A DNA stretch of 63,596 nucleotides, filler included, from Stramenopiles sp. TOSAG23-6 (GCA_900128565.1; 14 parts of 14 records of this genome joined end to end with filler, not necessarily neighbours in it); one strand, 5' to 3'. Positions 8,772 to 63,596 are shown, counted from the whole stretch's first letter. Made by a program: numbers and translations. The notes: generated by a model not told the origin, from the sequence alone.

Positions 8772-9829
8772 CTAACGCTTTCTAAAACGTTTATCCTTCC
8801 CTTTTAATGATATTGGAGATAAATGGCCCAATGTAATTTGGAAAAATATTTCAAAAAAAAATCTAAAAAATTTGTTAGGTACAAAATTTAGTACGAAAAA
8901 AAAATCGAATTTGAAAAAAAATAAAACATACAGGAATCAGACCGTTTCCGTCCATGTTGATCTATTTCGTGAACTTTTGGTTCATTCTGAGTCAAATGAC
9001 TGGTAATATATTCCAAAGCTTTATCGACCTCATCAGTGAAAAATAAATCTTTCACATCATCTTTTGTAATTGTGCCAAATTCCTCCATGACATCCCAATT
9101 AATGACTTGAGCCCAGTATTCTTCACCAAAAAGAACTACAGGAATATTTTGCATTTTACCTACCTGAACTAAACGGAGAATCTCAAAGAGTTCATCCATT
9201 GTCCCCATGCCACCAGGGGCAACTACAAGAGCTTTGCAAGGTACAGCCATCCAAAATTTTCTAGTAAAAAAATAATGAAATTCGAATGCAAGCTCAGGTG
9301 TGACATATGCATTCAAACCTGGTTCAAATGGCAATTCTATACCCATTCCAACTGATTTAGATCCTTGTACCTCACTTGCACCATGATTCGCAGCTTCCAT
9401 CATACCAGGACCACCTCCAGTGCAAATACTATACGTCGGAAGTTCGGGGTTCTTTTCTCGGCGATCCGTGGACCACTGCGCAAGACCTCGAGCCAATCCG
9501 CGTACTTTTTCATAATAGCCACACATCCAAAAAGTTCGTGTTAGCCTCAAGAGATCTGCTTGCGCTTTAGTGCGTTCCTCATCTGTTAAATCTGAGCGTG
9601 CTAATTTAGCAGTAATCTCATCCGTTGATTTCTTATGTGCTGGAAAACTTTTACCACGAGCAGAAGCAAAAAAGAGAACAGTATTACTTACACCATTCTT
9701 CTCCAAACGTCCTTTTGGTTCTTGGTATTCGCAAAGAACACGAATTGGACGAGCAGAACGACTACAAAGAAAATCTTTACTCTTGTAAGCCTTTTCCCCT
9801 CTTGGAGGAGATTTCGTTGTTGAATTCAT
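8772..9829 (-). CDS. LOG-family nucleotide phosphoribohydrolase (lysine-decarboxylase-like); one intron 8831-8931
   Basis: TGGGPGMMEAAN, FHYFFTRK and PGGMGTMDE motifs; removing the intron gives tail SLGHLSP...KR*. Confidence 0.9.
8831..8931 (-). mobile_element. Introner-like intron, GT...AT
   Basis: GTATGTTTT...GTACCTAAC...CCAAATTAC-AT; removal leaves an open frame to TAG. Confidence 0.75.
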
Positions 9830-10090
9830 ATTGTGCTTGTGAATATGAAGAATCTGCAGTGTTTCTTCTTCGATTCTTTGTTTCTTCAGAGGTCGTGTGT
9901 ATGTGTGTCGTGTCGTCGTCTGTCGATGATGTTTTCTGATGTTTTATTTGTTTTGTTTTTTTTGACAAAAAAATCGAAATGAAACTGTCGGTTACTATAT
10001 TTATTTGTAATTATTGAATATACCGTATATGACTAGTAAAATCAGTCACATACGTAATACCAAAATAATATTACTACTACAACTACTAAA

Positions 10091-11152
10091 ATGTCTGTGC
10101 AAAATCCCAAACGAACAGAATATGAAGAAGACGTGTTTCAAAAGGTGTTTAGCGGCTTAGGCCCTGTCGTATTGATTACAAGCTATTTAAGTTTGAAGGA
10201 TAGACTCTCTGGAAGACTTGTCTCAAATGACAAAAGTCGACCTTGGTTGGTCGGTGTTGATTGGGGTAAGGTGACTTGTACTAAAACAGCTAAGAATGGC
10301 GACTTGGAATTTTTGAAGTGGTTACGAAGTAGAAAACCACCTTGTCCATGGGATGAAGATACATGCATTGAAGCAGCTCAAAAAGGTCAGTTAAAAGTAT
10401 TACAATGGTTGCGAAGTCAAAATCCACCTTGTCCGTGGGATGAAGAAACATGTAATGAAGCGGCTAGAAATGGTCATTTAAAAGTACTAAAATGGTTGAG
10501 ACTTCAAAAACCACCTTGTCCATGGAGTGTAGCTACGTGTTATTTGGCCGCTATGAACGGTCAGTTAAAAGTATTACAATGGTTACGAAGTTTTAAAATT
10601 CCTTGTCCTTGGGATGCAGATGCTTGTAGCTTTGCAGCTATGAATGGTCAGTTAAAAGTATTACAATGGTTACGAAATCAAAATCCACCTTGTCCATGGG
10701 ATGAAGATACTTGTGATTTTGCCGAGAATAAGGATCACTTGGAAGTATTACAATGGTTAAGAAGCCAAAATCCACCTTGTCCTTGGAACGAAAATGTCAT
10801 GTGTTATCGTGCAGCTCAAAATGGTCATTTAGAAATATTGAAATGGTTAAGAAGTCAAAAACCACCTTGTCCATGGAGTGGAGTCACGTGTAGGTCCGCA
10901 GCAGATAATGGTCACTTAGAAATATTAAAATGGGTAAGAAGTCAAAATCCACCTTGCCCTTGGGGTGTAAATACATGCAAATGGGCAATTATTAGTGGTC
11001 ACTTTGAAATATTGAAATGGGTAAGAAGTCAAAATCCACCATGTCCTTGGAATGAAGAAATTTGGGAATATGCAATTGAATGGGAGAGTCGGCGACCAGA
11101 AATAAAAGAATGGTTAAAAGAGGTAAAAGCACCAGGATATGATCAACATTAA
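10091..11152 (+). CDS. Ankyrin-like repeat protein with CPW repeats
   Basis: About 9 repeats of C..AA.NG(H/Q)L(E/K)(V/I)L(Q/K)WLRSQNPPCPW. Confidence 0.9.
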   Translation: MSVQNPKRTEYEEDVFQKVFSGLGPVVLITSYLSLKDRLSGRLVSNDKSRPWLVGVDWGKVTCTKTAKNGDLEFLKWLRSRKPPCPWDEDTCIEAAQKGQLKVLQWLRSQNPPCPWDEETCNEAARNGHLKVLKWLRLQKPPCPWSVATCYLAAMNGQLKVLQWLRSFKIPCPWDADACSFAAMNGQLKVLQWLRNQNPPCPWDEDTCDFAENKDHLEVLQWLRSQNPPCPWNENVMCYRAAQNGHLEILKWLRSQKPPCPWSGVTCRSAADNGHLEILKWVRSQNPPCPWGVNTCKWAIISGHFEILKWVRSQNPPCPWNEEIWEYAIEWESRRPEIKEWLKEVKAPGYDQH

Positions 11153-11362
11153 TAAAACAAAGTTAACGCTAACCCTAGTTACAATGTACATAAAAGGAAA
11201 GAAATCTGCTATTCCAAATAATTTCAGATATACTATAAAACCAAGATTGACTCTTTTATAAACAAAATATATTTGAAATAAATCACATATTAATGACTCT
11301 TTTATAAACAAAATACTTTGGTACCAAATTTCATACCAAAAAAAAAATACATTTGAAATAAA

Positions 11363-12843
11363 TCACATATCAATCCCTTTCGATCTTCGTTTTTTTTGCA
11401 TCACAGGAGAATCTGGAGCAACTGGAGCAGCACTTGCTGGAAGAGACACAGGAATGGCAACATCATTAGATATTCTCGCATCTTCCGCAGGTAGAGCAAC
11501 GGCAACAGCGTCCATTCCTTTTCGATTTGAAAGATTTTTGTTAGAGTTATTTATTTTCTTCTTGGATGAATTTTCTTCTGCATGAATTTGTCCAACTATT
11601 AATGCAGTTGCTTTCTGAATATCATTGCCAACAAGTGATAATGCTTCAGCACATGCTTCTGAGGGGAAGCCCATGCCAACCATTTCGTTTAGTTTGCGTT
11701 GATCAGGTTCAACTTTTTCATTGTTTTGGTCCATTTTGTCTATTTCACCTAGATCACACATTGATTGAAATTGTTCGCGAACTCCTTCTTTAGATATAGA
11801 AATGATTTCACCTCTGTTTGCCTCAATAATTTTCAATCGCCGACGATCATCTGCTGATACGGATCCCGCACGGACTCGATATCCTGCTTTATAACTAACA
11901 CCTCCAGCTTTTCCAGCATTCAATAAAATATTCATTCGATCTTGATCAACTTCTTCACCTTCTTCTAAATTTGATGTGCCTTGTTCAGGAAATGCAACAA
12001 AAAATAACTCCATCATTGAAAAACCAGGAGGTACAGGTGGTGGTAAACCATTTAGTTCATATGTCTTCTTTGCCTCACGATAATTTTTCAATGCCTTCAC
12101 ACGAGCGTTAAGAATAATCTGCGCAGCCCACATCATTAAAACTACAATACCATAGGCAATACCCAAAGCAATCAATGAAGTAGACAGAGATTTAACTACA
12201 GCAAGTACCCACTCAGTGTATTCTTGAGTGGATCCACTAAAGCTTACATAGGAAGATAAATTTTGTATTTCTATTTCAGTTTGATTTTGTAATTTTTTAG
12301 AAATGTCTTCTGCAGTAATAAAAATATAAATACCACTTGAGAGAAGTAGTAGTGTAATAACACCACCAATATATTTACACACTCGAAGCACCCGTGATGA
12401 ACGAGCAATCGACCCAAATGTTGAAATGACTGCATTTACCACGAGAAGTGCTAATGGTACAATCGCAATAAATGGCAACCATTGTGGTAATTTTGTTAAT
12501 ATACAAAATATTTCTCTCATATAATTTGCATATTGTAATAAAAGACATGTATTTTGGAAAAATATTTCAATTTTTTTTTTTTAAGGGTTAGGTACAAAAT
12601 TTTTATAAAAACCAAAAAATTTTACCGAAAAAAAAAAAATAAAATAAAACATACATCCAACTGTTACAATAAAAATATTTGCCATGAACGCAAAATTTAA
12701 TTGAAGCGCTTTAAATCCTAAAATTATTCCTGTGCAAATTGATCCAGCGAGAACTGTTCCAATAGTAAAACCAATTGTACTAAAGAAACATGTGGAGAAT
12801 ATAGGTTGCGATTTCATTTCACTCCATGCCTGATCAAACGTCG
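11363..12843 (-). CDS. Multi-pass membrane protein with C-terminal UBA domain (5' truncated); intron 12547-12654
   Basis: Several TM segments; UBA-like LNEMVGMGFP..AC.EAL..VGNDIQKATALI; intron removal joins VTVG-CLLLQYANY-MREIF in frame. Confidence 0.7.
12547..12654 (-). mobile_element. Introner-like intron, GT...AT
   Basis: GTATGTTTT...GTACCTAAC...CCAAAATAC-AT; joins two ORFs in frame. Confidence 0.85.
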
Positions 12844-14835: not shown

Positions 14836-16481
14836 ATGAGTAAACGTGGGACAAATCAGACCGATGCTGTCACAGGAGATGGCCGAGACATAGAAAATGA
14901 TATCGCAAAATTACGGAAAGCGAATAAAGCACTGCGTCAACAAATGAAAGAATTGACAAACGCACTTCACGAATTAGCACTCAGTGACAAAGCTGCAAAC
15001 TCTAGTGAAATCCGTAAACTGGAACAAGCACACCGCAGTAAAGAAAAACAGATCCGTACATGTCTCAAAAAGATTAAAATTTACAAAATAGGCAACAAAA
15101 AGCTCAAGGCACAAGTGGATGCTTGCGTGGGTGATGACAAGTTGGTAGCAGTGGAAGTCCGGATTGCTGAAAAACAAGAAGAAATCAGAAAATTAAAACA
15201 GGAAAATAAATCTTTCATTTTCAAACAACGAGTGCTAGAAAAACGATTAGATGAATTAGAGTCAATGCAAGGTGATTGGCCTAATAAAATCAAAATGTTG
15301 ACAAAGGATATCGCCGTGTATGTTTTATTTTTTTTCAATTTCGAATTTATTTTTTTTCGTACGAAATTATGTACCTAACAAATTTTTTTTTGAAATATTT
15401 TTCCAAAATACATGTAAGTTTTTTTTCTCATTTTCCTCATTTTCCTCATTTTCACTATAACTTATTTTATTTTTTTGTACCAAATCCTAATTTTTGATAG
15501 TGTTATAAAAAACTGACGAATTCCAAAATATTTTTTTTTTTTTTACAATATATNTATAAAGAGCGTATAAAAAAATGTCGAGCACAGGAATTACGACAGG
15601 AACAAATGGCCGAGCGACAGCTCGTTCAGATGCAGGATTTATCAAAAAAAAACAGTGAACTTCGTGATGAACTTAAAAAACTTGGCTTTGAGGATGATTT
15701 GTATGTTTTTATGATGAACCCTAACCCTAATCAGAGTTATTTTTGTACCTAGTATTTGGTTTTGAGTACCGTTCATATGTATTGTTCATATTCATATTCA
15801 AATTTATTATTTGTTTTTGAGTTTGTACCGTTCATATGTATTGTTCATATTCAAATTTATTATTCAAGTTATTCAAATTTTTATTTAAATGTATTAAAAA
15901 AAATTAGAGCTAATTGCCAACAATTTTTTTTTAAATATTTCTCACAATACTTGGCGAAACGCAAACAGGAAAAAATAAATCGCGAATTGAAATGGAAAAA
16001 GGATAAAAGTCGTTTAGAAAAAGAATTGAGTGAAGTAACAGAGCGACAAAAAAGAGAACGATTGCAGAATACTAGTGAACTAAATGCAAAAATGGCTGAA
16101 ATGAGATCAGTTCAACGTAAAAAAAAGGAATTCGAAAACACACTAAAAGAAAAGGAAAAGGAAGTTCGTATGTACGGTTCCATTATGAATTTCTTTTCTT
16201 TTTCTTACTACGAAAATTCCGTACCTAATGATACTTTCTTTTTTTGAAATATTTCTTCACAGTGCAGGCAAGTTCTTCGATTAAAGCACTTGAAACGTCA
16301 ACTTCGACAACTTGCTCTAGTTCCATCACCAACAGCATCCAGACGCCCACCTCGCAATACTAGTAATTTTAAAAACAATCCTTTTGAAGAAGAGACTCCC
16401 AGCACGGAAGGCGTAAGTCCTACTCAAGACGTCCAACAAGACGAAGAAGAAGAACAAAATGGGGAAATGGATTATTTGTAA
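14836..16481 (+). CDS. Coiled-coil protein, multi-exon (introns 15318-15553, 15701-15952, 16172-16267)
   Basis: Removing these introns gives a continuous coiled-coil frame ...KDIAV|YKERIKK...EDDL|AKRKQE...EVRM|QVLRLKHLKRQLRQ. Confidence 0.75.
15318..15413 (+). mobile_element. Introner-like intron, GT...AT, directly abutting a second intron (15414-15553)
   Basis: Full consensus element followed immediately by GTAAGT. Confidence 0.8.
15701..15952 (+). other. Diverged family intron, GT...TT
   Basis: TT|GTATGTTTT...AAATATTTCTCACAATAC-TT; frame restored; contains an internal duplication and CCCTAA repeats. Confidence 0.75.
16172..16267 (+). mobile_element. Family intron with canonical GT...AG ends
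   Basis: AT|GTACGG...GTACCTAAT...GAAATATTTCTTCACAGTGC-AG; AG occupies the NN position. Confidence 0.8.
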
Positions 16482-17369: not shown

Positions 17370-18510
17370 CTACACATTCGAATAACCGACAGTGCGATTG
17401 TTAATCAACTTTTGAATATATCGAACTTGGAGATACGTAACAAGTATTACAGTGAAGCTTTCAGCATGTATTGTATAACAATATAAATTACAATTTGAAA
17501 CTTGTGAGTGTTTGTGATGCAAAACAAAGTAAATATGAAATTCATGATGAAAGCAAACATTCAAAAAAAAAAATCATTAGGTACAAAATTTCGTACGAAA
17601 AAAAAATAGGTAAAACGTACAATCGTCCACCAAAAAACATCACGATTATTTTGTTCTTGCACATCTGAGTGATTATCGACTCGCATTCCCATATATTTTG
17701 TAGAGGTATATAGAGTATCTATTTGCCAATTTAATCTGCGTAATACTTCCTTTGTAGGTTCTAAATGTTTTTTTTGCAAGTATTGTACAATAATATTTCA
17801 AAAATTCGATTTTGTTTGTTAGGTACAAAAGTTACTATGAAAAAATTTAGACAAAAAATTGAAATGATAAAAAAATTTTAAAAATCTAAAAAAAAATCTT
17901 AGGTACAAAATTTCGTACGAAAAAAAACCATAAATTCGAAATTGAAATTATTAATAAAAACGTACAAGGTATCTTCTAATGAAGTCGTTGGGTCAATATC
18001 AACCGCAAAAGTCACCCGCTTTAAGGCTCGTGAACCAAAACGGTTCTCAAAACAAAACCTATATACGCCAGCTTGTTTTGCAACAATAGAAAATTTATCC
18101 TCGGAAATGTATAGTTTTGATTCATACATAATATTCTCTTTGGTCGTATCTCCTGGGCCATATGCTTTAATCTTTAAATCTCGATTCCCACCAGCAGTGA
18201 CAAAAAATGCTCCATGAATATCCATTGATTCGAGCGGTTCAGCTTGATATAAAACACCATTAAACAACTGAACATCTTCACTAATACATACATCCTCGCC
18301 ATACGGAATATCAAAAGTTAGAATATGAGACGGAGAAAACCTGGGCTCATGAATATTTCCTGATAACTTTGTTAGGCCATTTATGTCAACTGGGACATGC
18401 TCACCTTGAGGAACTTCTACAAGAGCCGTAGAAGCAGCACTTGCCCCATATAAACGACAACTTAAGCTAAATAGGAACAATACTACTGCGATATTCAATT
18501 GATAGAACAT
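17370..18510 (-). CDS. p24/emp24/TMED family cargo receptor; introns 17778-17965 and 17466-17620
   Basis: Signal peptide, GOLD domain (GVYRFCFEN), coiled coil, NNRDVFWWTI|AESF TM segment, YLQVRYI. Confidence 0.9.
17466..17620 (-). mobile_element. Family intron, GT...AT
   Basis: ATT|GTACG...CAATAC-AT|GCTGAA yields the p24-typical WWTIAE. Confidence 0.85.
17778..17965 (-). mobile_element. Composite family intron, GT...TT
   Basis: Two internal TTTTGTACCTAA motifs; TT duplicated at both junctions; joins EDTL|QKKHLEP. Confidence 0.8.
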
Positions 18511-20139: not shown

Positions 20140-21063
20140 TTAAGCAGCATTTGGATATCTAAAGCTTATGTACGCTTTTTTGAACTCATCAAAACCAACC
20201 AACACAAGAGCTCCAGCCATACCGCGGAAGATATTGGCTCCAGCACCTTTAAACATAGCACCAACTCCTTCTTCTTTCAAAATCAAACCAGCACATTGCA
20301 GAGAACTGGTATATTTCATTGCATTAGCACCACCAGAGTTCATCATCATGCGACGACGAATGGTATCGATTGGGTATGCCGCAGTCGATGCAGCAGCAGT
20401 GACGCTGTAACCGAGGAGAAAACGAAGCCAAAATGAATCTGGAATCATGTTGCGACAAGTATCGTAGATACCAAAGTAAAGACCACGATAAGCAATAATC
20501 CCAACACAAGAGACCCAAAAACCGTTGTATACACCTCCTTTACAAAAGACACCTGATTTCTTAGCAGTCTTTGTGATTGTATCAATAAGACCATTGAATT
20601 CACGATCAGCACCTGTACCAACATCAACAGCAAGGCGAGTACGAGCGAAATCAAGTGGATAGACAACCGCGAGGGAAGTGGCACCTGCGGCACCACCAGC
20701 CATTACGTTGTTTAGTAGCTTTATTCCGAACGAAGAATTCTTGTCAGCTCCGAGAAGTTGTTTGAAACCCTTCTTGTAGCGCTCCTTGAACATAAAGTTT
20801 AATGCCTGAGTTGGGAAATAACGCACAACATTGGCAAGGTTACCACGCCAGAAAGAAGCAAAACCTTGCTCTTTTGGGACACGCACAAAGACATCGACGA
20901 TACCTTTGTATGGCCTGGTGATAGCCGCGGACTCTCCTTGATTTTGGAGGAGGAGCTTCACACGCTCGATTGGTGCAGCAGACGTCTTTGCTACAGCTGC
21001 GGCGCAACCAGCAAGCATAAAGTCTTCAATGGCATTTAGTTTGACTTGTTTTTGAGGAGCCAT
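20140..21063 (-). CDS. AAC: Mitochondrial ADP/ATP carrier
   Basis: APIERVKLLLQ, WRGNLANVVRYFPTQALNF, YPLDFARTRLA and the RRRMMM signature; ATG at 21063. Confidence 0.97.
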   Translation of the reverse strand: MAPQKQVKLNAIEDFMLAGCAAAVAKTSAAPIERVKLLLQNQGESAAITRPYKGIVDVFVRVPKEQGFASFWRGNLANVVRYFPTQALNFMFKERYKKGFKQLLGADKNSSFGIKLLNNVMAGGAAGATSLAVVYPLDFARTRLAVDVGTGADREFNGLIDTITKTAKKSGVFCKGGVYNGFWVSCVGIIAYRGLYFGIYDTCRNMIPDSFWLRFLLGYSVTAAASTAAYPIDTIRRRMMMNSGGANAMKYTSSLQCAGLILKEEGVGAMFKGAGANIFRGMAGALVLVGFDEFKKAYISFRYPNAA

Positions 21064-21400
21064 CGTGTGGTGATTGTACTGTGCTCGGTGTGTGTGAGTG
21101 AGTAAGTGAGTGAGTGAGTGGAGGAAAACACCACGAGTTACTTCGAAGAAGCCAGCAGCGATTTCGCTTTGACTGGCACGTGGCACACTGAAAGCAATTT
21201 TCTTCAAACCGTAATTAGGTACACAAATTTCGTACCAGAATATTAGGTATAAAATTTTGTACGAGAAATTTGAATTTCAATTTTTCAGTTTTGAGCTCGA
21301 GTTAGTTTTTGATGGCTTTTTAATAATGATTTCGCGATGATTTGACAAAATTTTTCCAATGATTTAAAAATTTTAGAATAATTCTCTTTAGCCTACTTCA

Positions 21401-26263: not shown

Positions 26264-27472
26264 TTATTTACTCAAGATTTGATGTTTCACGTTTTCTCTT
26301 TTTACTCAACATTTCTTCTAAAGTAGGTAACAAAATGTCTAATGATTTCATAGTAAACTCTGGAGTTTTTTGTTCATGTATTTTAGAAAAATATTTCAAA
26401 TTTTTTTTTGAAAATTTGTTAGGTACAAATTTTCGTACGAAACCAAAAAAAAAAAATCAATTTCAAATTTTAAAAAAAAAAATAAAACATACATCACTCG
26501 AAGAGTCACTGACAAATTCAGATAACTCATTTTCATTTGTTGCACCAGACATCACTAATATAGTTCTGAAACCTCCTCTATTTCCAAATAACATATCCGT
26601 GTCTAATCGATCTCCAACAAAAACAACGCGATTTGGATCTTTGGGAAGATTAAATTTTTTTTTTGTTAAATTTGCTAAATTTAATGAAGGTTTGCCACAA
26701 ACAACAGGATCGACTCCCCCTGCGATGTGTACAGCAGAGACTATACTGCCACCACCTGGAACGAGTGGACCATTTTTTAATAGAGGTGAAGCGGCATCAG
26801 TGTTTGTGGCAACAAAATAAGCTTTACCATATCGAAGATACATGTATTGTGAAAAAATATTTTTTTTTGTAAAATTTCTTAGGTACAAAATTTCGTACGA
26901 AAAAAAAATTTAGACAAACAATTTGAAATTCAAAACATAAAACATACATGGAGGCTTTGTGTAATTTACCATAGCAAAAACTCCCATCAAATCCAACAAC
27001 AACGCCAGAAACATTAGGATTCATATCTTCGAAACCCCATGACTTGACATCATCAAAATTTTTATTTTTGTCTTCTAACCCAAGAGTGACGAAACCATCC
27101 GATTGAAGAGTTTTATGTAAACCTTCTTCACCAACAACATATAAAGTACTACCCGCTGCAATTTTTTCTTTGACATGCCGAGAAGCAGCCATTGCAGAAG
27201 ACATCAAATCACTTTCTCTTACCTCTATTCCTAAATGCTTAAACTTTGCCTTAAAATCAGCGACTGTTTTAGTGCTATTGTTTGTCACATAACTTACANA
27301 CTTNCCNANTTTTTTTNANTGCTNCGACAACTTTATCAGATCCATTGATAACTTTAAGACCAGTCCATATCACTCCATCACAATCAAAGACAAAAGCATC
27401 TATGCTATTAATCAAATCGCAAATAACATCTGATTGGTCTTTCAATAAAGTTTTAGGCGGGACCATTGGCAT
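26264..27472 (-). CDS. PGP: HAD-IIA phosphoglycolate/4-nitrophenyl phosphatase; introns 26842-26947 and 26376-26492
   Basis: FDCDGVIW, VTNNS, FVATNTD, CGKPS, VGDRLDTD; frame break only within the N-containing stretch 27299-27325. Confidence 0.92.
26376..26492 (-). mobile_element. Introner-like intron, GT...AT
   Basis: Joins SSD|EQKTPEFTMKSL, a HAD-IIA C-terminal P.F...SL motif. Confidence 0.85.
26842..26947 (-). mobile_element. Introner-like intron, GT...AT
   Basis: Joins KASM|YLRYGKAYFVATN. Confidence 0.88.
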
Positions 27473-28469: not shown

Positions 28470-31400
28470 TTATAGTGAAGCTGATCGTTGGAGACAAGAC
28501 ACTCTTCGATGACGAAACATTGCATGACGTCCAACATCATCAAGTGTTTGAAGTCTGTAATCATTCTTTACTAAAGTTGTTAATTCTCTCCTAACGTTTT
28601 CGTAAAACCTTTTAAATGAGAAAATACCTAACTGCCCTCGTAAAAATTCCACCAGGTACAAACCTGTTCGTAATTGAAATACACGTACTGTACAAACAGA
28701 TACTCCTGCTCTTGTTACATTGAGGGAATATTTATCCCAATCAGATATTACCTTTTGACGGATGTGTTTATAGGGGTATGTAATGCAAAAAAATATTTCA
28801 AAAAAAAATTAAAAATTTTGTTAGGTACAAAATTTTTTTACNAAAAAAAAAAAAAAAAAATTTAAAAAACAAAAAAAAATTAAAAAAAAAAAAATTAAAA
28901 AATAACGTACAAGGCAATGGATGCGAGTCAGCTTCAACAATGTTTGCAATTCTTCGTAATACAGCAGCAGCTGGAAACGTTGTAGTAAACCGAGTAGATC
29001 TTTTCACAGTATCAACAAATAAAGGGACATTCTTCAGGTCATTTTTTATATTTTTTATATTTTTTGTGTTTTTTGTATTTTGTATATGTTTCGTGTTTTT
29101 GAGTGTCTTTTTTTCATGTATATTTTTTTCATTTTCCACATACTTATCATTATTATTACTAGACAATTTCATATCAGAATGTGTAGCAATTGTATCATTA
29201 CATTGTAAATTAGAAAAATTGTCTTTAGTAGATTTTATTTTTGTTGGACTATTAGGGTTAGGGTTCCAGCGATGATGAAGTTGCATTGGTAACAAACTCC
29301 TAGGTGATGGAGACCAATTTTTTGCTGAATCACGAAATCTTCGACTTTCAACATCAGTCATTGGATAGCATATACTGTAAAAAGATATAACATAGAGTAT
29401 TTATTTTTGTTACAAAATTATTATTCCAAAACATTTAGTTACAAAACAAAAAAACAAAGAAATTTCAAAAAAAAAAAAAATTAGGGTTAGGGTTATTCAA
29501 AAAAATAAAACCTACATAAATCTTCAAATATTTCATCATCAAAAGAATCTGATGTAATAAATGAATGTGGAGATAAAGTATGATCTGAAAATCGACGTCT
29601 TGGGTGTAAATTTGATGTTTTACTTGACTTGTTTGATTGAGCACCGACTATATCGAGTGGAAGTGATCTCGCACATTGCGATACATTTTGATAATTTGCA
29701 TTTTGTAAAGATTGACAAGTGGTAGGACTAGGGTTAGGGCTTTCATTGTACAAGTCATTATACAAATCCATTTGAAAAGATTCATCATTTTCACGTTCTA
29801 TCCTATTTTGAAGTAGCTGTGGCGCTAAAGGAGGCGACGAAAAAAATGGTGTATTTCGTGTTTGTCTTGACTTTGTAGAATTGAAATTTGTTTTTTCTGT
29901 ATTTTCTGTATTTTCTGTATTTTCTGTATTAGGGTTGTTGTCAAATGTATGTGAATTTCCAATTTGTTCATTTTTTCTAGAATTTGCATGTTTTGTTAAA
30001 TATTCCCCTGGTGTAGTAGATGTAAGAGAATTAGTAAACATTGTATTATTGTCTTCAGTACATTTTCTAAGAGAACGAAATGGCCTATGAGTCCAAGTGT
30101 TACCCGGTGACAGTTCTTGTTTGAATTCACCTATGTCATCAAGGTCATGTAAAGACTCAAAATCAATCCAAAGTGGTTTTTGTTTTTGTTGTTGTTTTTG
30201 TTGCTGTGAATCAACAACATCTATCACTTCAATTATTTCATCTGTTGTATTATTTCTTGAGTTATGTTTTAAATTATGTTTTGAATTATGTTTTAAATTA
30301 TGTTTTGAATTATTTTTTGAATTATTTTGTGTTAGCCATGGATGACGTAATGCTGATCGTACGGAAATCCTATAGACAGGATCTGGTTCCAATAATTTTG
30401 TTAATAAATCTATCGCCTTGATGGAGAAATTTTTAGGAAAAAACCAATTTGGATACAATGTATCACTTTTTTGCTTCATAGGAAAAAGCAATGCTTCAAT
30501 ACATTGGTTATCATTGATAGTATCATACTCATTTCCAATAGCTTCTTCATTAGTGTTAGAATTGTACGAAAAAAGTTGTTTATTATTGAGTTTTTGTACT
30601 TGATTTTGTTCTAGTGCTGTACATTTATGTCGTTTTTGACACTGAATTTGATATTTATGTAAAATTTCACGACGATGTTGTGTCCATTCACGCCATTTTG
30701 CAAATCGTGGACATTGGAGCAAATCTTTTCCAAAGGGTAAGTTTCCTGCAAGCATTGCATATAAGATGATTCCTGACGACCAAACGTCAACAAAGACTCC
30801 ATCATAGCCTCTATTTGGAGTATGTTCCTCAGAATTGATTCTACGATTACATGAATGCTCAGATGTTGATGATAACGATGAAAGGACTTCAGGTGCTACA
30901 TAATGTGGAGAACCAACAACACTTTTTAGACGTCTTATATCTACTGTATTATTGTTTGCCGGACCTGCACTAAATTTCATTTTTTTTATTGAGAATATAT
31001 CAGATTCATTTTGAGAATCTCCGAAATAAGCAGAAAGTCCAAAATCAGCAATTTTTAAAGTCGGATACATATCATCATGATCGGAAAGTAACAAATTTTC
31101 AGGTTTTAAATCCCGATGGCAAACACCTCTTTCATGACAAAATAAAATACCTTGTAGTAATTGTTGGTAATATCTACGAGCGATGTTTTCTTCCGTTCCT
31201 CGATCAATCAAAATTCGATCAAACAATTCACCACCAGACGCCAACTCAAGCACTAAAAAAATTGTACTTTTTGACACATTAACTAATTCAAGAACTTCAA
31301 TCAATCGTAAAACATTTTTATGTCCGCTTAAATAAGCCATATGTTGTATTTCTTGCAAAATGTTTCTTCTATCTTTAATAAAAGCTGCATATTTAGACGA

Positions 31401-45422: not shown

Positions 45423-48400
45423 ATGAACATGAGTTCTCTAGGTACAAAATTTAGTACGGAAAAAACAAATAATGTCGAACAAAATACAGAAGTCAACCCT
45501 AACCCTAATGTTGATAATAACCCTAACCCTAATGATAATGAACGTCTAGATATCAAAAATGATTGTCCATTTTTTGAAAAAAAACAAAAAAAACAAAAAA
45601 CATATCTTCAAAATCTTCAAAATCAACAATATAAAAATAGTCAAAATACAGCATTTGATATATCACAAAGATCCACAGCTGTACTGTATGTTTTTTTTTT
45701 AAATTTGAAATTGAATTTGTTTTTTTTTTTTTTTTNNNNNNNNNNNNNNNNNNNNNNNNNNNNNNNNNNNNNNNNNNNNNNNNNNNNNNNNNNNNNNNNN
45801 NNNNNNNNNNNNNNNNNNNNNNNNNNNNNNNNNNNNNNNNNNNNNNNNNNNNNNNNNNNNNNNNNNNNNNNNNNTTTTTTTTTAAAATTGAAATTTAATT
45901 TTTTTTTTTTTTTTTTTTGGTAAAAAAATGTTGTACCTAACATTTTTTTTTTTTTTTTTGAAATATTTTTCCAAATTACATGTACGAAATGGATGGTTAC
46001 CCTAACCCTACGAAATTAAATGTACAAGAAAGTAAAACGAATGTGTCACGAGGGTTAGGGTTAGGGTCACGAGGACATTTGAATACTAAACACTCAAAAG
46101 TGGATCGTGTACGTTTTCAATTTTTGTTTTTTTTTCGTACGAAATTTCGTACCTAACGATTTTCATTTTTTTTTCATTTTTTTTTTTCATTTTTTTTTCA
46201 TTTTTTTTTGTTTTTTTTCGTACGAAATGTTGTACCTAACAATTTTTTACTACAATTTTAAAAAATATTTTCTAAACAGTACATCAACGTCATCCTATTT
46301 CAAGCTTCACTGCAGACGCGCGTAATTTATCTTTTATATCACCAAGCCCAACTCCAGTCCTTCTACATCGAAAACGAGTTAACCCTAACCCTAACCCTAA
46401 AGAAGATGTTTCAAATAGACTCTCTAATCCTAAAGAAGATGTTTCAAATAGTCTGTATTCTAGTATTTCTACTAATATTTCTAGTATGTCTTTACAAGAT
46501 AATGAAACACAAAAATCACAAAATATTGACAACATTGGCAAGAAAGATCAAATCCTACTAACTCATCAAGGATCTCAAAATAATACTGTTCATTCACAGT
46601 TAAATTCTACTATAAAAACACTTGAGAGTGCATCAAAAGCAGCATTAATAAGAACAAATACATTGAAAAGAAATCTAGACAAAAACAATATACAAAATTA
46701 TTCAAGAGTAGAGACTATTAGTACTACTACTACTACTAATAATAATATTCATACTACTACTACTACTAATAATAATAATACTACAACAAATACAAATAAA
46801 TATCTCACAAAATAATAGTTCAAATATTGATACTGAAGTCATCTTTAGGTCGCAAACGCAATATGAAATGAGATCTACACAACAATACAACCCTAACCCT
46901 AACCCTAACCCTAAAAAAAACACACTGAACTCAACTGCTATCCCTAACCCTACAGAGATATATCAAGATATTGAGAAAAAATCAAAACGTTCTCGAATTG
47001 TCCAAAAAGTAGGTTTTCAAAATTGATTCTTTTGTTTCGAAAAAATTTCAAAAAAAAGTTGAAATTTTTTTTTTTAACATTTTTTTAACATTTTTTTAAC
47101 ATTTTTTTAACATTTTTTTAACATTTTTTTTACATTTTTTTTATATTTTTTTAACATTTTTTTAACATTTTTTATACAAAAACGTTTAGCTTATATATAT
47201 ATATTTCTTTTACACTATTTTCACAAAATACAGGTACTTCAGAGTTGGAAACATGTATGTTTTTTTTTTTTTTTAATGTATTAATTTTTTTCGTACGAAA
47301 TTTTGTACCTAACAACTTTTTTTTTTTTTTTAATATTTTTCCAAAATACATGGCAGGCTTCGGAACAATATTACAAATCAACAAAAAACGAGCCCTAACC
47401 CTAGTGGTAGTGTCCAACAAACTGCACATTCAATTATAGAAAACTATCAGGAGCAAAAACATTCTCCAGCAAACCCTAACCCTATTTCAAAAAATATCGA
47501 CAATCATTCAGTAAAAACACGAAATAAATCTTTGAACAAAACGTTGAATCCAAACAATACAAAATTTTATATGCCAGCGTATCACAAGGGGTTAGGGTTA
47601 GGGTTAAAACGAACAAAAAACCAAATAACAATTCGACCATTTTCAACACCAACGGAGATGAATCCCAATCCTAATAACCCCAACCCTAATAACCCAAATC
47701 AATCAAAGCATCAAAATCATCCTTGTTCAACTAACCCGAATAACCCTAACCCTAAATTTCAACAACAAAATGAGCAAAACTTTCAACAAATTCTTCATCA
47801 TTATTCTTCTGTACAACATAACAAAAATGATGGACATGTACGTTTTATATGAATTTCTAATTTAATTTTTTATATGAATTTCTAATTTAATTTTTTTTTT
47901 TTTGGTTTTTATAAAAATTTCGTACCTAACAAATTAAATTTTTTTTTTTAAATATTTTTTCACAATACATCCTAATTATAAATCCTTAAGTAACACTTTA
48001 AATATTGTGTCGCCTTTTGTAACTGAAAAAATAACAGAAAAAATAACAGAAAAAATAACAGAAAAAAAAAACAGAAAACCCTAACCCTAAGGGCGACATT
48101 CGAAATGTGTTAATACACCCTAACCCTAGATTAAATACACATTCAACTTCAAGTGAGAAAGAAGAGTTTAATCGTGTTAAATTGGATAACTATTTACGTG
48201 TATCGCGCGGGTCACGTACAACAAGCCGTAACCCTAACCCTAATCGTGTTAGCCATATATCTGCAGCAACTGCTGTGGCTGCAGCAGCATCTGCTGCTCG
48301 AAATAAAGAATTTGAAAAAACATCTACAACACGAAATAAAGAATCCTTCCATAGGATTTCGACGCCGTATTTGTTAAATACTAGGACAAACTCTACAAAT

Positions 48401-51773: not shown

Positions 51774-52964
51774 ATAGTACATGCTATAATATAACTTTGT
51801 CCTGCTTCAAGTCCATTTAATCCTGCATATATGTAATACGAAAAATATTTCAAAAAAAAAATTACAATCTGTTAGGTACACACTTTCGTACGAAAACCAA
51901 AAAAAAAAAATGATGAAAACGTACATGTTGATTGAATTCGTGCAGAAGATACCGAGAAGACACGTATTGTGAAAAAATATTTCAAAAAAAAAAACTTAAA
52001 TTTGTTAGGTACGAAATTTCGTATGAAAACCAAAAAAAAAAAATTAAATTAGAAATTCATATAAAACATACACGCATATACAAAATAGAATGGGCCCAAA
52101 TCAACCAAAATACCATTTGAAGTTGAAAAATATTTAACAGGAAATCCCAAGTAGCTAAATGGTTGAATGATCACATCTATAATTGCAGCTAAGTGATGCC
52201 CGGCAGGGAAGGAAATGTATATTGTGAAAAAATATCTTTCAAAAAAAAACCTTAAATTTGTTAGGTACAAAATTTCGTATGAAACCAAAAAAAAAATAAA
52301 TTTGAAATGAATGATGAAAACGTAGATGAGTCGAACCACCCGTTGTAAAATAATAACAGAGTAGTGGCAAAGAAGCAAAGCCAGGCAAGATGATCTTATA
52401 GCGCCATCTAAGTTCTAATACATCATCTGCAAATCCAAGAAATAACATGAATGTGATAGAAGCCAAAGCTGCGTTATACGCTGCTAGCTCCTCATGAGAA
52501 CGAGCAAAAGCACAGCCCATTAGAGTTACACAAATGAGATATACTGTGCCACAAACAATTCCCAAAGACTCCGCAACTTTAACTTTTTCTTTTGACGTTC
52601 CACGACGACCAAGATCATAACCCCAAAGATTTGCACGAATCAACATCAATTTTATTTGAGGAATAATTTGAACAGTTGATATATACGAAAAAGTACATAA
52701 AAATAACACACAAAATATTTTTGTATTTCGACCACGAAAATCTCCATCTTGATCAAAATATACAGTACCACGTGACCATAACTGTACTAACAATACCATT
52801 GGCAATATTAAAGGTCCAAGGATTGTAATATATTGAAACGTCGAGCACATACTGTTTGACATAGAAAAAGAAACATTTGAAATATCTGCTGCTAACTTTT
52901 CTTTTTCTACCTTTTTATTTGCAGCTGTTTTACGAGATCTCAGTTCCAAATTAGGATTTACCAT
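51774..52964 (-). CDS. DPAGT1: UDP-GlcNAc:dolichyl-phosphate GlcNAc-1-phosphotransferase (3' truncated); introns 52217-52325, 51962-52071, 51831-51924 and one starting at 51773
   Basis: VAESLGIV, FLGFADDVLELRWRYK; spliced product [35 protein letters not shown]. Confidence 0.95.
51831..51924 (-). mobile_element. Family intron, GT...AT
   Basis: Removal restores the conserved [13 protein letters not shown]. Confidence 0.92.
51962..52071 (-). mobile_element. Family intron, GT...GT
   Basis: Removal restores [11 protein letters not shown]. Confidence 0.9.
52217..52325 (-). mobile_element. Family intron, CT...AC on the sense strand
   Basis: CAT|CTACGTTTTCATC...GTACCTAAC...CACAATAT-AC|ATTTCC joins GGSTH|ISFP. 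Confidence 0.75.
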
Positions 52965-53409: not shown

Positions 53410-54477
53410 ATGTCTTTCCCTTGGAATGAAAATTCAGCACCAGCTCCTGTTCGAGGTGCGCGACGTGGTCGAGGAACAAATGAAGCTCCGACTTCACTAT
53501 GGGGTCCACCTCCTGCTCAGTCAGAAAATAAATCGAGGGGTAATCCTTCACAGAGGACTCCACCACCGTGGGGTTTAGACCAAACAAAGTCTCCAACTTT
53601 GACACAAGCACAAGTGCTTCATCAAAGACAACATAACCAACACGCAAAACTTACCAATGAACCTAAAAGTTTTGCACGTGAAGAGTTTGTCGCACAGACT
53701 TCAAATGTACCTCTTCCAAAAAAGTTTGAAATACCTGAAACTTTTCCCGAAGAAGAGCAGCGTTTGGTCGCGGATATGATGAATAATGGATATGAAGAGG
53801 CACAGATTATCGAAGCTATTATGGATCTGCGAGAATCGTTAAAGGCTCAACTGCGAAATTGGCAGGCGAACGAAAACGAACGCGGGAGAAACAAATTACG
53901 CGAGGGATCTCAAGAAATGTTCGCAAACTCTTCGCAGAATCAGGGCCAGATGAACGTCTCCCCTCCAGAATTAACACATCAAAGTGTGAATTCCGGTAAA
54001 CAATCTCGGAGTGATATATCGGCTCCTTGGGATAGAGAGGAAAAGATTCGTCCTGGAATTCGCAGAGTGTCTCGAAACAGGAGAGAAACTGCTCCATTTG
54101 CAGTTGATGAAGAAAACCTCAAGACGAATGGCACACAACACGTCAATCGTGGAAATACCAACGGCATAATGCAAAATCAAAAACGAGATCGTCGGACACT
54201 AAAAATGCAGCGAGATGATAAAGTTAAAGCACGCGAGGAAGGGAGTAAGATGTACGTTTTCATAATTAATTTCAATTTTTCTTTCATACGAAATTTTGTA
54301 CCCAATTATTTTTTTTTTGAAATGTACGTTTTCATTTAAATGTCCAAACTTTAAAACAATATTTTTCTAAAATTCAGATGTGCTGGAGGTGTCGTCTGGC
54401 AGTCAGCTGCACGGGATTCAAATGATGCAGCGCGGGCAACAAGAGAGAGAAATATGGGAACAACCTCGCTTTGGTAA
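53410..54477 (+). CDS. Hypothetical protein; GT-AG family intron 54252-54377
   Basis: Spliced frame ends ...GSKI-CAGGVVW...MGTTSLW*. Confidence 0.6.
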
Positions 54478-56993: not shown

Positions 56994-58055
56994 ATGAGCA
57001 AACTACTTTCAAGCAAAATGATTACGCTTCCTCCGACAAAAAATGATACTAAAAGTTACGCATTACACCTTAACAACGTAAATGTTTTTGATGCTATCAT
57101 AAGAGTTTTATCCAGTGTCGATGTAAGTTCTGATGCCAATCTCTTTGCTGTTCCACTGCTATACCATGCAGTTGCTGCCGATGAAATTGATGGCGTTCGA
57201 ATGCTTTTAAATCGGTGTAAATTTGACATTAACAGGAAGGTTGAAATTAAGAACCTAGTTCAAGGTTACACTGCACTTCACTTGGCAGTTGATCAAGTAC
57301 ATCCCGAAATTGTGTCAGTCTTGCTTTCCCACGGCGCCACAGTCGAAACTAAAACGAATAGTGGTCACCTCCCTCTCAACATTGTAAATATCCCTTATTA
57401 CCCAATGTTGTTTTCTACTTTTCAAATATTATGTCACCTTTTTCTCATTCTTATTACAATTTGTCACTTTAAAAATTTACATGCAGCAATTCGAGGAAAT
57501 GTTTCAATCGTCGAAATGCTTTGTAGATTTGGTGCCAAAGTAAATGCAAAAGGATCACATGGAAATTCCCCTTTGATTGATGCAGCAGAAGCTGGTAACA
57601 TTAAAAGTGTTGAGTATCTAATCAAAAATGGTGCGAATATTCATGCGCAAAACGACTCCGGAAGCACAGCCTTAATCCGTGCAGCGTTCTGTGGTTACTT
57701 CAAAATTGTTTATTTTTTATTACTTAACGGAGCAATTGTAGATCACCAAGATAATATTGGTAATACTGCTCTGATGAAAGCTGTCATCAAAGCTCAAAAC
57801 GTTGAGGTCATTAAAATACTTTATAAATTTGGTGCGTGTAAACATATCACGAATAAATATGGCAACAGTGCTTTGAAAATAGCATTAGAAGACCAAAACC
57901 AGTTCATCGTAAGAGTTTTATCTGAAAGTTGTATGATTTATTTTTTTTTTTACAGAAAAATCGAATTTATTTTTTTCGTACGAAATGTTGTACCTAACAA
58001 TTTTTTTTTTTTTTGAAATATTTTCCTAAAATATAGACGTGATATTGTTGAATCA
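56994..58055 (+). CDS. Ankyrin-repeat protein (3' truncated); introns 57384-57482 and 57931-58036
   Basis: GYTALHLA, GHLPLNI|AAIRGN, GNSPLIDAA, GSTALIRAA, GNTALMKA. Confidence 0.9.
57384..57482 (+). other. In-frame 99-bp intron GT...AT lacking the internal family motif
   Basis: The 33 inserted codons split an ankyrin repeat; removal gives GHLPLNIAAIRGN. Confidence 0.85.
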
Positions 58056-59264: not shown

Positions 59265-60203
59265 AAATACTTAGAGCCAACTCGCGTTTTGATTCATATA
59301 CTGTATCTTTCGCTAGCCTTTTTTGAAATACCGTTTTGGATGAGGGAAAAATCTTCTGATGAATTGACGCAGTCACTTGAAAAATATAATTACTATACAC
59401 ATGGTCGAGAATATTGGTCTATGACGACTGTGAAATCCTTAGAATTTTGTTTATTACTTTTAGAAGCGTTTGGACTAGTATACTTTGGCTCGATAATTAA
59501 AAGTGAGGTAGTGTCAGAACATGCAACTAACGTGCAGAGCGCTGCTAGTAAAAATATGTCAGGTCAAGAGTCTATGTTCGTTTTCATCATTCATTTTATT
59601 TTTTTTCATAGTAAATGTTGTACCTAACGATTTTTTTTTACGAAAACGAAAAAAAATACATTTTTCACGATACATGAGCGGATTGGTACGGTTATGGCGA
59701 TTTTCACATTGGATATTTTTCGATGCAAGTGTTTTACTTATAGCTTTTATAGATTTATTTCTGTATTCCATTGATTTTTCTTCAGGATTTCTTGGTTCTC
59801 TAATTAGACCCATAATTTGGATTTTATTTATTCATGTATATTTTCATCATGAATTTTTTACCTACATTTTTTTTTTCATAGAAAATTTTGTACCTAACAT
59901 TTTTTTCTCTTTTTTAAAAATAATTTTATTTATTCATCCTGTACGACGAACAATGGGTTTTATAATTAGACTTTTTCGGAGAATTGCTGATGTCCTTTTA
60001 TTACTTTTTGCAGTAGTCGCAATGTTTGCTTGCTTCAGTTATTTCTTATTTAAACCCAAAAATGGAATTATCAATGATACAAACGAAGGCTTTGGTTTCT
60101 CATCATTTTGGGAATCATACAAAACTTTATTCAAGTGTGTAACACTTGTAAATTTTCCTGATTTTATGAATTCTGGATACGCAGAGTTCTCGTGGTTCCC
60201 TTT
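59265..60203 (+). CDS. Ion-transport domain protein (two-pore-channel-like) fragment; introns 59576-59675 and 59836-59937
   Basis: L.LAFFE.P.W; IRP helix; FSSFWESYKTLFKCVTLVNFPDFM pore motif. Confidence 0.75.
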
Positions 60204-60425: not shown

Positions 60426-61520
60426 TTATGAATGAATGTAAAACATTAACATAAAAATAATTTGTAGCAAAATATTGTATTACAATGTATGTTAATTGCA
60501 AAATTGCACTATGCCATTGAACACAAAAGATCAAATGTCAAACAATTAAGAGATAAACTAGTCGACTTAAATTCTAAATTGACTCGATGCGATGTATGTT
60601 TTTTTTTTTTTCAACAAAAAAATTGATTTTTTTTTCGTACGTAATTTTGTACCTAACAATTTTTTTCAAATTTTTTTTGAAATATTTTTCCAAAATACAT
60701 GTACGAATTTTTAATGAATTTGCGAAACGTAGTAACAATATAAAATATGGAAGTCCTCCAAATTTAATTTCAACTCAGATGCGTTTTAAAAAAGGTGTTT
60801 CTTCAAGACGTTCAAAAAGTTCTAGAAGCTCAAAAAGTTCAAAACTTTCAAAAAGTGTAAAATATCGAAATAAATCCAAAAAAATATGATTTTTTTATTC
60901 TGGAACATACCTGCTCGAATTACTCTCTCTGAGACTGAGACTGAGAGAGTCATTCTGGGTAAGAAATCATCGATGAAAAGAAAAACAAGATAAAAAAAAC
61001 AAAAAAAACAAAAAAAACAAAAAACGTTGAATTTTTAAAAAATTGAATATAATAAAATCTTCAAACAAAAATTTCAAGACTTTTTTCTGTTTCAGTAGAA
61101 AATTTATTTTCAATGTTTACAATTTTTTAATTAGGTACAAAATTTCATACCAAACAAAAATTGTTATCCTATACTTTACATTATTTAAAAGTAGTTTATT
61201 GTTCCATTTTATCATCATTATCATCATCATTAATAAGATGTTGGTCCACATCATTTGTTTTGAAGAAATATTTCAAAAAAAAAAAAAATTAAATTTGTTA
61301 GGTACAAAATTTCGTACGAAAAAAAAAAAATATTTCAAAAAAAAAAAAACTTAAATTTGTTAGGTACAAAATTTCGTACGNNNNNNNNNNNNNNNNNNNN
61401 NNNNNNNNNNNNNNNNNNNNNNNNTTAATTAATTAANNNNNNNNNNNNNNNNNNNNNNNNNNNNNNNNNNNNNNNNNNNNTTTTTTTTTTTTTTTTTTTT
61501 CGTGTAAAAAAAAAATTACC

Positions 61521-61582: not shown

Positions 61583-62373
61583 ATATGATTATTAAATAAA
61601 TTTTGTAATTTTTCATTGGCAAAATTAATACATAATTGTTCAAGAGAATTAATTTGCATAATTTCAAAACCAAAAATATCTAAAATACCTATAAAATTTG
61701 ATGAATTATTATTATTACTTGGGGTAGGGTTAGGGTTATCAGTAGTAGGGTTAGGGTTATCAGTAGTAGGGTTAGGGTTTATATTATTTTGAGTGTGGTT
61801 TTGATGATTTGATGAATTTTCATATATTAAATGTTTTTCGTGTAGTATTTTGTTACACACTTCTTCCACAAGCCATGTAAAAATACGTTGATAAATATTC
61901 TTGACTAATGACATCGTATATAATATGATACAATATTTCAAAAAAAAATTTAATTTTTGTTAGGTACAAAATTTCGTACGAAAAAAATTTTCAAAAAAAC
62001 AAATTTCAAAAAAAATATAAAATTACATTTTCTCGTGCTTTTGAAATGGTACATAATTTATCTGTATATTTTGAATTTGGTAAATACAAACGATATATAC
62101 ATAATAAATGAGTCAAATCTGAGTCAAAGCCTAATAAGGAAAATGCTTGTTTGGCATTATTTACATTTTTGATTTTTGTTTTTTTTTCATTTTTTTTTGA
62201 ATTTTTTGAATTTTCTACATTTTTTTTTGAATTTTCTGTAAATTCTAAATGTAATAAATGTAATACACCCACAAGTACTTGCCATATAGTACTTTGTTGC
62301 TTCATAGACACACCAAAGTGTAATAATGCTGCACGTATGCCTGTCGCGTCAGGATCATTTTCAATAAATGGAT
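61583..62373 (-). CDS. Myosin motor domain fragment; intron 61918-62026
   Basis: [14 protein letters not shown] and [11 protein letters not shown]....[16 protein letters not shown]. Confidence 0.92.
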
Positions 62374-62456
62374 TATATATTGTAAAAAAATATTTTTTTT
62401 TTTTTTTTTTTTGAAAAAAATCGTTAGGTACAAAATTCCGTACGAAAAAAAAATTT

Positions 62457-62488
<32 letters not shown>

Positions 62489-62643
62489 NNNNNNNNNNNN
62501 NNNNNNNNNNNNNNNNNNNNNNNNNNNNNNNNTTAATTAATTAANNNNNNNNNNNNNNNNNNNNNNNNNNNNNNNNNNNNNNNNNNNNATTTCGTACCTA
62601 ACAAATTTAAGTTTTTTTTTTGAAATATTTTTCCAAAATACAT

Positions 62644-63596
62644 AATTATGGGAGGAGTAAATCATACAAGAAATACACTAGAAGTAAAGAGATTTTTTAA
62701 ATATATAGAAAATGGAAATTGGTATCAAGCCAAGAATTTACTGGAGGATATAACTGAAAAATATGTACAAGAATATCCAAATGATATAATACGCCCACCT
62801 AGTTGTAATGAATGGAAGAAATGTACCACAACTTTTATTGATATTGAGGGCGAAAAAAGAAAAAAAGGTGAATATTTTCGAGTAAATTCTGATGCAGCTC
62901 AAAACTATTTTGAACGTCATAAGCATAATTTTAAGGATGTACAATGTAAAACAAAATCGTTTTCGACCATTCTAGATGCTAGAGATTTAAAAGCACAAGG
63001 ACTGGTATATCACAATATAGATATAAACAAAATGAAGGAAGGACTGTCCCGTTTTGAAACTACAGAACATTACTATCAACATATACATAATGTAATCTAA
63101 TGAAAAAACAATTTTTATTTTAAAATATTTCCTCACGATGCATGATAATAGGACAATTGAGAGACTTGTACTGAAAAAACGCAGGTATAGGTTTTTTGAT
63201 AGTAAAGAGACAATTATTCGACGTATTGCTGATCCAAAATTCCTAAATTCCATTTGTAATGATCGTCCAATATTTATGCGTTTGAAAAGCAAAATAGATC
63301 CTATATTCATTGCTAACATTTGTCTTGAAATATCCAAATCCAAAGAATCTAATTTGGATGAAGATGATCCAGGAAAGTTTCCATCTCCGCCAGGGGTTGC
63401 TTTAATTAGTCGTAATATGCATACGGAGTTATTGTTTAACGCTTCACATAATGAAGAGGTGTCTCCTAGGTTAATTGAGATGCTGATCCAACTTGGGGCT
63501 GATGTCAATCATGGTAATTCAACAGGCTTTCCCCCATTATTGGTTGCTTCATTGAGAGGTCATGTGGAAGTAGTTGCAAAACTTCTCAAAGCTAAA
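62644..63596 (+). CDS. Ankyrin-repeat-containing protein fragment; 52-bp intron 63092-63143
   Basis: Intron removal joins HIHN|DNRTIERL...; ends LGADVNHG...GFPPLLVASLRGHVEVVAKLL at the window edge. Confidence 0.7.

Follow-up and report, generated by a model that had tools for sequence, protein, structure and literature searches.

An introner variant with non-AG acceptors and two-base target-site duplications in a MAST-3-like marine stramenopile

Can a mobile element take its acceptor from the site that it enters, and do acceptors gained in this way turn into AG? The question is raised by 63,596 nt of DNA from Stramenopiles sp. TOSAG23-6 (GCA_900128565.1; 14 records joined end to end with filler), a stretch referred to below as the window, whose genes are interrupted by copies of a repeated intron of about 100 nt. 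The original prediction held that an element resembling a miniature inverted-repeat transposable element (MITE) inserts at NT dinucleotides, duplicates them and leaves a scar-free intron, and that selection then improves the acceptor stepwise toward AG. All 14 coordinates cited for it (between 8831 and 63143) fall on element copies or introns. We find the feature to be real, an introner variant with non-AG acceptors, and the prediction to be partly right: the excess of identity between flank and acceptor and the A at intron position -2 are confirmed, the rule that the upstream exon always ends in T and some of the coordinates are not.

The eukaryotic DNA of the window is rich in A and T and broken by assembly gaps. 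It encodes an ADP/ATP carrier (20143-21063), whose best named relative is a EukProt protein labelled GSMAST32 (87% identity), a label that we take to mean MAST-3, and for this reason the host appears to be a MAST-3-like marine stramenopile. Element copies were catalogued by motif scan, inspection and profile search, and intron ends were assigned from the terminal consensus and by joining the flanking open frames. The catalogue comprises 31 complete, frame-checked introns, and a further 12 copies are usable on the 5' side alone. Those showing only a 3' end were left out of the counts, and a complete copy at 62026 was tallied as 5'-only, its end being ambiguous. As expected of introners, the 31 complete and 12 partial copies sit at many unrelated gene positions. 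Divergence is given as mismatches to the consensus in 53 positions. Each copy is denoted by the last two exon bases followed by the last two intron bases; the 31 pairs are AT>AT (13), TT>TT (3), GT>GT (1), CT>CT (1), TT>AT (3), CT>AT (2), GT>AT (2), GA>AT (1), AT>AG (2), TT>AG (1), AA>AG (1) and AT>AC (1). The introns, each with the evidence for its ends, are:

8831-8931, minus: element intron, CT>AT, near consensus, in a LOG-family gene (frame; Pfam)
12547-12654, minus: element intron, AT>AT (frame)
15318-15553, plus: tandem double element (15318-15414 plus a degenerate 15415-15553), GT>AT (frame)
15701-15952, plus: element intron, TT>TT, with GT-TT ends (252 nt exactly excised in a polyA contig)
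16172-16267, plus: element intron, AT>AG in the window, AT>AT in sequencing runs X2 and X3 (96 nt exactly excised)
17466-17620, minus: element intron, TT>AT, in a p24 gene (frame; Pfam PF01105 reaches the junction)
17778-17965, minus: element intron with two cores, TT>TT, in the p24 gene (frame; Pfam)
26376-26492, minus: element intron, AT>AT, in a HAD phosphatase gene (frame)
26842-26947, minus: element intron, AT>AT, in a HAD phosphatase gene (frame; Pfam)
28778-28910, minus: element intron, TT>AT (frame)
29370-29515, minus: decayed element intron, AT>AT, with an out-of-frame AG 5 nt before its end (frame)
32601-32706, minus: element intron, AT>AT, fitting the consensus blocks (consensus)
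34613-34790, plus: decayed element intron, AT>AT (frame)
35712-35821, minus: element copy in sense, CT>CT, non-coding, probably in a 3' untranslated region (136 nt downstream of the stop codon of a gene on the minus strand)
40475-40574, minus: element intron starting with TT, a candidate donor, AT>AT (frame)
41522-41631, minus: element intron, TT>TT, with an in-frame AG at +12 (frame)
45686-45981, plus: element intron spanning an N gap, CT>AT, its two ends taken to belong together (frame)
46109-46284, plus: element intron with two cores, GT>AT (frame)
47009-47233, plus: decayed element intron, AA>AG, breaking the T rule (frame)
47255-47351, plus: element intron, AT>AT (frame)
47838-47970, plus: element intron, AT>AT (frame)
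51831-51924, minus: element intron, AT>AT, in a DPAGT1/ALG7 gene (homologues P0122 and P0123 colinear across the junction)
51962-52071, minus: element intron, GT>GT, in the DPAGT1/ALG7 gene (same residue count across the junction in homologues)
52217-52325, minus: element intron starting with CT, AT>AC or a shifted cut of equal length (homologues fix the 109 nt removed, not the cut points)
54252-54377, plus: element intron, AT>AG (frame)
57384-57482, plus: highly decayed or unrelated intron, TT>AT, in an ankyrin gene (cut keeps the 33-residue ankyrin period)
57931-58036, plus: element intron, TT>AG (just 6 codons before a gap)
59570-59675, plus: element intron, GA>AT, breaking the T rule, with an in-frame AG at +3 (frame)
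59836-59937, plus: element intron, AT>AT, 3' terminus replaced by a 15-nt direct repeat (consensus and frame)
60594-60700, plus: element intron, AT>AT (frame)
63092-63143, plus: decayed 52-nt intron, AT>AT (frame)
6867-7155, minus: the one canonical GT-AG intron, following GG, not counted as an element (frame)

Flank and acceptor dinucleotides are identical in 18/31 copies against a mean of 11.7 in 200,000 shuffles (p=0.0007), so that among the window copies the acceptor does usually repeat the last exon bases. The bases at -2 match in 22/31, the maximum permitted by the base counts (shuffled 15.2, p=0.0001), and neither -1 nor any position from -3 to -8 shows excess identity; from the result for -3 to -8 we reject a duplication of more than 2 bp. 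Each of the five non-A acceptors (three TT, one GT and one CT) repeats its own flank, evidence for a genuine, locus-specific 2-bp target-site duplication. The test rests on those five copies and on one variable position. This test, which compares flank matches within and between loci, is the one described in PMC9860276. The alternative that splicing requires an acceptor equal to the exon end is rejected by mismatches at 9 of the 14 non-A sites.

The target context is narrow. Exon -1 is T in 29 of the 31 complete copies and in 41/43 overall (background in coding sequence 0.29), and the exceptions to the predicted rule are 47009-47233 (AA>AG) and 59570-59675 (GA>AT); the canonical intron 7155-6867, which lies outside the range that the prediction cited, follows GG. 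Exon -2 is A in 25 of the 41 T-ending flanks. The base before these 25 AT sites is C in 11 (background 0.17, p=0.001), T in 6, G in 5 and A in 3, and the first base of the downstream exon is G in 16/30 (background 0.20). The upstream flank is AG in 0/43 copies (p=0.07 against background). AG targets should splice best and yet no flank is AG, so we think it more likely that the T is set by insertion than by splicing.

Scar-free excision is supported by RNA, by homologues and by repeat spacing, and together with the shuffling test these uphold the predicted duplication. A 680-nt polyA-RNA contig (X5 record 21) aligns in three blocks, 15388-15698, 15951-16171 and 16268-16415. Missing from it are exactly 252 nt (15701-15952, GT...TT), given the two-base shift allowed by the repeat, and exactly 96 nt (16172-16267), so that two copies are precisely removed in one contig, as introners are from mRNA. 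Excision of a GT-TT intron at the RNA level is unusual in itself. Two homologous DPAGT1 proteins run colinear over both the 51962 and the 51831 junction, and at 57384 the ankyrin period is preserved by a GT-AT cut. That the non-AG ends stem from sequencing error is rejected, as the acceptors of the introns at 15318, 15701, 17620 and 17965 are unchanged in X2, including the TT ends of the 15701 intron. AG ends for the introns at 29515 and 34613 are likewise rejected: they are out of frame and only the AT end keeps the frame.

These data also correct individual copies. The GT>AT pair predicted at 15318 holds for a tandem double element whose end is set by the frame at 15553 and not at 15414. At 52217 the removed length is fixed by the homologues, but the intron starts with CT instead of GT and AT>AC is one of several possible cuts. 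The CT>CT copy predicted at 35712 is present but not coding. At 57384 the TT>AT cut stands, in an intron with no recognisable core (23/53 mismatches). Searches for homologues of the LOG-family gene found proteins that stop short of the 8831 junction, which lies beyond the homologous region, and a homologue search with p24 exon 1 and a solved-structure search with exon 2 gave no match. The absence of RNA cover over the p24 introns was given no weight. Tables of joints and loose ends were dominated by other copies of the repeat, and their tallies for 15413 and 15414, which resembled an artefact of alignment, were also set aside. A second contig, X5 record 20, stops at 15315, where a shifted donor, an allele and a coverage break are indistinguishable.

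In the DPAGT1 gene, the GT>GT intron interrupts a codon (52072, minus strand) that encodes Cys; Gly is found in the two closest homologues and in 2 of the 3 others printed, and the base behind this difference is the exon -1 T. Both RNA runs are rich in element sequence, at hundreds to thousands of times exon depth when summed over copies. The summed depth at the core is 160,851 versus about 7, which is not a copy number, and the abundance may be due to retention or to the capture of RNA rich in A and T.

The element consists of a GTAYG donor, spacers rich in T, a palindromic core whose last bases are a branch-like CTAAC, and a 3' terminus. The donor is GT in 29 of the 31 complete copies and +5 is G in 27/31, fitting the U2-type U1/U6 consensus. 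The branch-like box was found in 27 copies and lies 37-48 nt from the intron end in 23 of them. A 7-nt pre-acceptor motif is present in 20/31 copies; intron -5 is T and -3 a pyrimidine in 31/31. As predicted, the termini are imperfect inverted repeats, with positions +1/-3, +2/-4, +3/-5 and +4/-6 complementary in 25, 27, 30 and 18 of 31 copies. The repeats span only 3-4 bp plus a T/A run, and the same bases double as splice signals. AG, the U2 acceptor, ends just 4/31 complete copies. An upstream AG that lies downstream of the branch box is bypassed in 13/27 copies, among them the RNA-supported 16172 intron.

Two other ways of defining the ends are rejected. RNA folding of five copies is no better than that of shuffles (z -1.63 to +0.29) and a compensating base is present in 2/10 GTAC copies, which argues against an RNA hairpin. 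A U12 AT-AC intron, read with a 2-nt shift, suits AT/AT copies only, and 18/31 are not AT/AT; the donor is also unlike what we take to be the U12 consensus.

G at +1 is absent in three copies: 40574 (minus) has TT, 52325 (minus) has CT, and 59570-59572 (plus) has CT with a GT two bases upstream, which the frame demands as the start of that intron. These may be relaxed donors, errors or shifted cuts. In 59836-59937 the 15-nt repeat copies the upstream exon end and is far longer than the direct repeat of any other copy. Tandem or nested copies, or doubled cores within one intron, occur at 15318-15553, 17778-17965, 46109-46284, 54252-54377 and 61256-61380, always in identical orientation.

The prediction that differing copies always have A at -2 holds in 13/13 pairs. 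Beside flanks without A at -2 the intron has A in 9/14 copies, whereas beside A flanks the A is lost in 0/17 (Fisher p=1e-4). Terminal neighbour positions are off consensus in 0 to 9 of 31 copies, with a background at -4 of 4/31. The contrast at -2 is far above that at neighbouring positions, and A at -2 is therefore not a product of drift. In the yeast P complex both acceptor bases are paired, A(-2) with the branch adenosine and G(-1) with G(+1) of the donor (10.1101/212811), which would give a reason for selection at -2. The two unconverted copies, CT and GT, belong to the least diverged ones, with 0 and 3 mismatches versus 2-10 (p=0.095). The pull toward A is strong, and its cause is unsettled.

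On balance we favour, as somewhat probable, a duplicated-site intron element in whose acceptors A at -2 is favoured after insertion, with AT as a resting state. A short non-coding mobile element (termini GTAY...ATAC) would have inserted thousands of times at NT, preferably at (C)AT(G), and a transposase would have duplicated two target bases at each insertion. The element would supply a U2-type donor, the putative branch point about 40 nt from its end and the pre-acceptor motif. The spliceosome, choosing the acceptor by motif and distance, would cut two bases beyond the element end whatever their identity. The downstream duplicate would then serve as acceptor and the message would be restored, as is seen in RNA for one TT copy and one AG/AT copy. 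After insertion the intron-side duplicate would be free to change. A(-2) would be favoured, probably through pairing with the branch adenosine as in yeast, so that CT, GT and TT become AT and AT keeps its A; T at -1 would be tolerated for long, with G the chief surviving change at about the background rate.

Several observations weigh against this reading. Converted copies are not significantly older than unconverted ones (medians 7 versus 4 mismatches in 53, p=0.19), the 8931 copy is already CT>AT at only 2/53 mismatches, and two copies are still TT/TT at 8 and 10 mismatches. The consensus helped to assign the ends, so conservation close to the 3' end is inflated. An in-frame AG alternative lies within 45 nt in 11 of the 27 non-AG introns. 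RNA support comes from one contig of one study, and this contig retains 15388-15553, the tandem element of 15318 being unspliced there. No transposase partner was found, no empty allele is present among the listed X2/X3 DNA pieces over 5 introns (the pieces run into the element), and the window, which has little intergenic DNA, holds no full-length copy that is antisense or outside a transcription unit. A MITE label would turn on these features.

Because the age trend is not significant, a source of A at insertion itself stays live, and the near-consensus 8931 copy would also fit it; we nevertheless regard this route as unlikely. The excised element could bring along flank bases of its donor site (mostly AT), or its true ends could be TG...CA; repair of the right junction would then either copy N from the target or keep the element's A. 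In 24/31 copies the exon ends in a T complementary to the A at intron -2, which lengthens the inverted repeat. TG...CA ends without duplication cannot yield five of five non-A acceptors that match their own flank, three AG copies would require non-silent exon changes, and the polymorphism at 16267, described below, is an acceptor change after insertion.

The exon copy could instead have mutated, AT/AT drifting to NT/AT while purifying selection keeps the intron A. Two of the 9 conversions are explicable as silent and 2 as conservative exon-side changes, a further point against selection after insertion, and positive selection would be unnecessary. Two other cases would require Asn to Ile, one of them at a p24 position where we presume a hydrophobic residue to be the family's expected state. 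A silent third-position T at -1 is kept in 13/14 phase-0 sites, so the exon flanks have changed little, and exon-side drift seems improbable as the general explanation.

The remaining part of the original prediction is the step to AG. The predicted stepwise selection is half supported: A at -2 is strongly non-random, and the G step occurs at background rate. Acceptors not ending in T number 5/31, four AG and one uncertain AC. This rate is on par with neighbouring intron positions (3 to 9 of 31). That 4/5 changes are to G (p=0.045 under equal rates, 0.009 under the observed spectrum of single-nucleotide polymorphisms) would fit positive selection that drives acceptors through AT to AG in a genome caught becoming canonical. 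Purging of AC and AA variants would yield the same G bias without an advantage of AG over AT. Among the window copies AG acceptors are not the youngest, being found in 0/12 least-diverged and 4/19 other copies; the trend is not significant (p=0.12). Of the five copies in the most advanced decay, four have AT ends. The bypassed upstream AGs count against canonisation as well.

The best single item for canonisation is at 16267, where two DNA-type runs (X2 and X3, one contig each, one study) read T and the window reads G. The AT allele equals the flank, and AG is thus derived by parsimony. About 0.5% of sites differ, and by a hand estimate a chance hit on one of ten acceptor bases has a probability of about 5%; an error in the window is possible. 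One AG copy has lost the exon T as well. The canonical intron 7155-6867 bears the element's pre-acceptor motif once, at the same place as element copies, and is either an old converted copy or evidence that the motif is a host acceptor signal. A similar conversion is reported for donors in Symbiodinium (10.1101/2020.10.14.339549). Canonisation to AG is suggested by these data, and as a full account we find it doubtful; AT looks like the resting state and AG like an occasional endpoint. A bolder version, which we hold to be rather unlikely, is that the spliceosome no longer scans for AG. The acceptor would be set by element motif and branch distance, and tens of thousands of duplicated-site acceptors would be undergoing an ordered conversion, A first replacing whatever base stands at -2 and G then replacing the T at -1, while AT/AG alleles segregate. 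The decayed endpoint would be an ordinary-looking GT-AG intron such as 7155-6867 that keeps the pre-acceptor motif.

Orientation bears on how the element spreads. All 43 copies are in gene sense and 42 lie within coding sequence; between genes there are core fragments only. Spread through RNA, by reverse splicing of an AT-ending intron, would account for this, the context being like a proto-splice site with T for G and the flank match reflecting a preferred context. The match at -2 is locus-specific beyond a shared preference, and selective loss of antisense inserts explains the orientation equally, so that we give spread through RNA little weight beside DNA insertion.

The palindromic core stands alone between genes, in either orientation, at 8756-8786, 11316-11349, 21234-21267, 35420-35549 and 61131-61162; decayed insertions and a protein-binding site are possible readings. 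An antisense core fragment at 45433-45475 (minus) falls within an open frame of the plus strand and may now be coding. Scans of viral and metagenome contigs and phages for core or terminal motifs gave no match. Short telomere-type repeats (at least 2 CCCTAA units) occur at 23 places between 449 and 61779, within exons and introns as well as in spacers, with 0 expected by chance; they frequently translate in frame as Asn-Pro and are possibly scars of break repair. A tRNA-like sequence at about 37704-37776 (minus) was spotted by eye.

The upstream exon keeps a copy of each acceptor's ancestral state, and the fitness of every acceptor dinucleotide could therefore be read from one genome and its populations. 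Two long-standing questions thereby become testable, namely how strict the spliceosome is about AG and whether introns born from transposons turn canonical. In this type of marine grazer, which is abundant, a gene finder that insists on AG will get the splicing of most intron-containing genes wrong; PMC12130899, in the part consulted, lists only AG and AC as expected acceptors. The parts of two introner surveys consulted do not mention MAST or stramenopiles, and the part of PMC12621601 covered holds nothing relevant. A literature search on this element family in MAST or on GT-AT introns in protists, with most subscription journals outside its scope, returned nothing relevant.

Among known systems, ISL2EU DNA transposons share the 2-bp AT target-site duplication. 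They target A|AT|T and usually have GG termini, whereas the target here is (C)AT(G) with a variable first base and the termini are GT (PMC4482050); identity with ISL2EU is rejected on target and termini, and the likeness is a lead only. Introners of Amoebophrya (PMC7789003) and nonconventional introns of euglenids (reviewed in PMC11282704) share non-canonical ends with direct and inverted repeats, but have inverted repeats of 8-20 nt or stable end-pairing, neither of which is found here. The MITE-derived introns of Fritillaria borealis are mostly not GT-AG, often have AT/AC ends and, like the copies here, combine inverted repeats with duplications; they are removed by the spliceosome (as reviewed in PMC11282704). 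Their donors are diverse and mostly AG, in contrast to the canonical donor, branch-like box and single dominant family of the window. Fritillaria and Amoebophrya are precedents for non-AG acceptors in mass. In the introners of Micromonas pusilla (IE1) and Chrysochromulina sp. the donor belongs to the element and the acceptor comes from the duplication (PMC11282704, PMC9860276); they resemble the present element as short, repeated, non-coding and scar-free insertions with their own donor. Their duplications are of 3-4 bp, with AG supplied in the IE1 example, whereas here they are of 2 bp and supply AT, TT, GT or CT. The direct precedent for the argument of the original prediction is the introner-like elements of Symbiodinium. 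There, too, a splice site recruited by duplication is converted with a directional bias, from GA to GC, and the change is seen as a mismatch between the copies (10.1101/2020.10.14.339549). That case concerns donors, a 4-nt duplication and a comparison between species; ours concerns acceptors, in 31 introns with one polymorphism.

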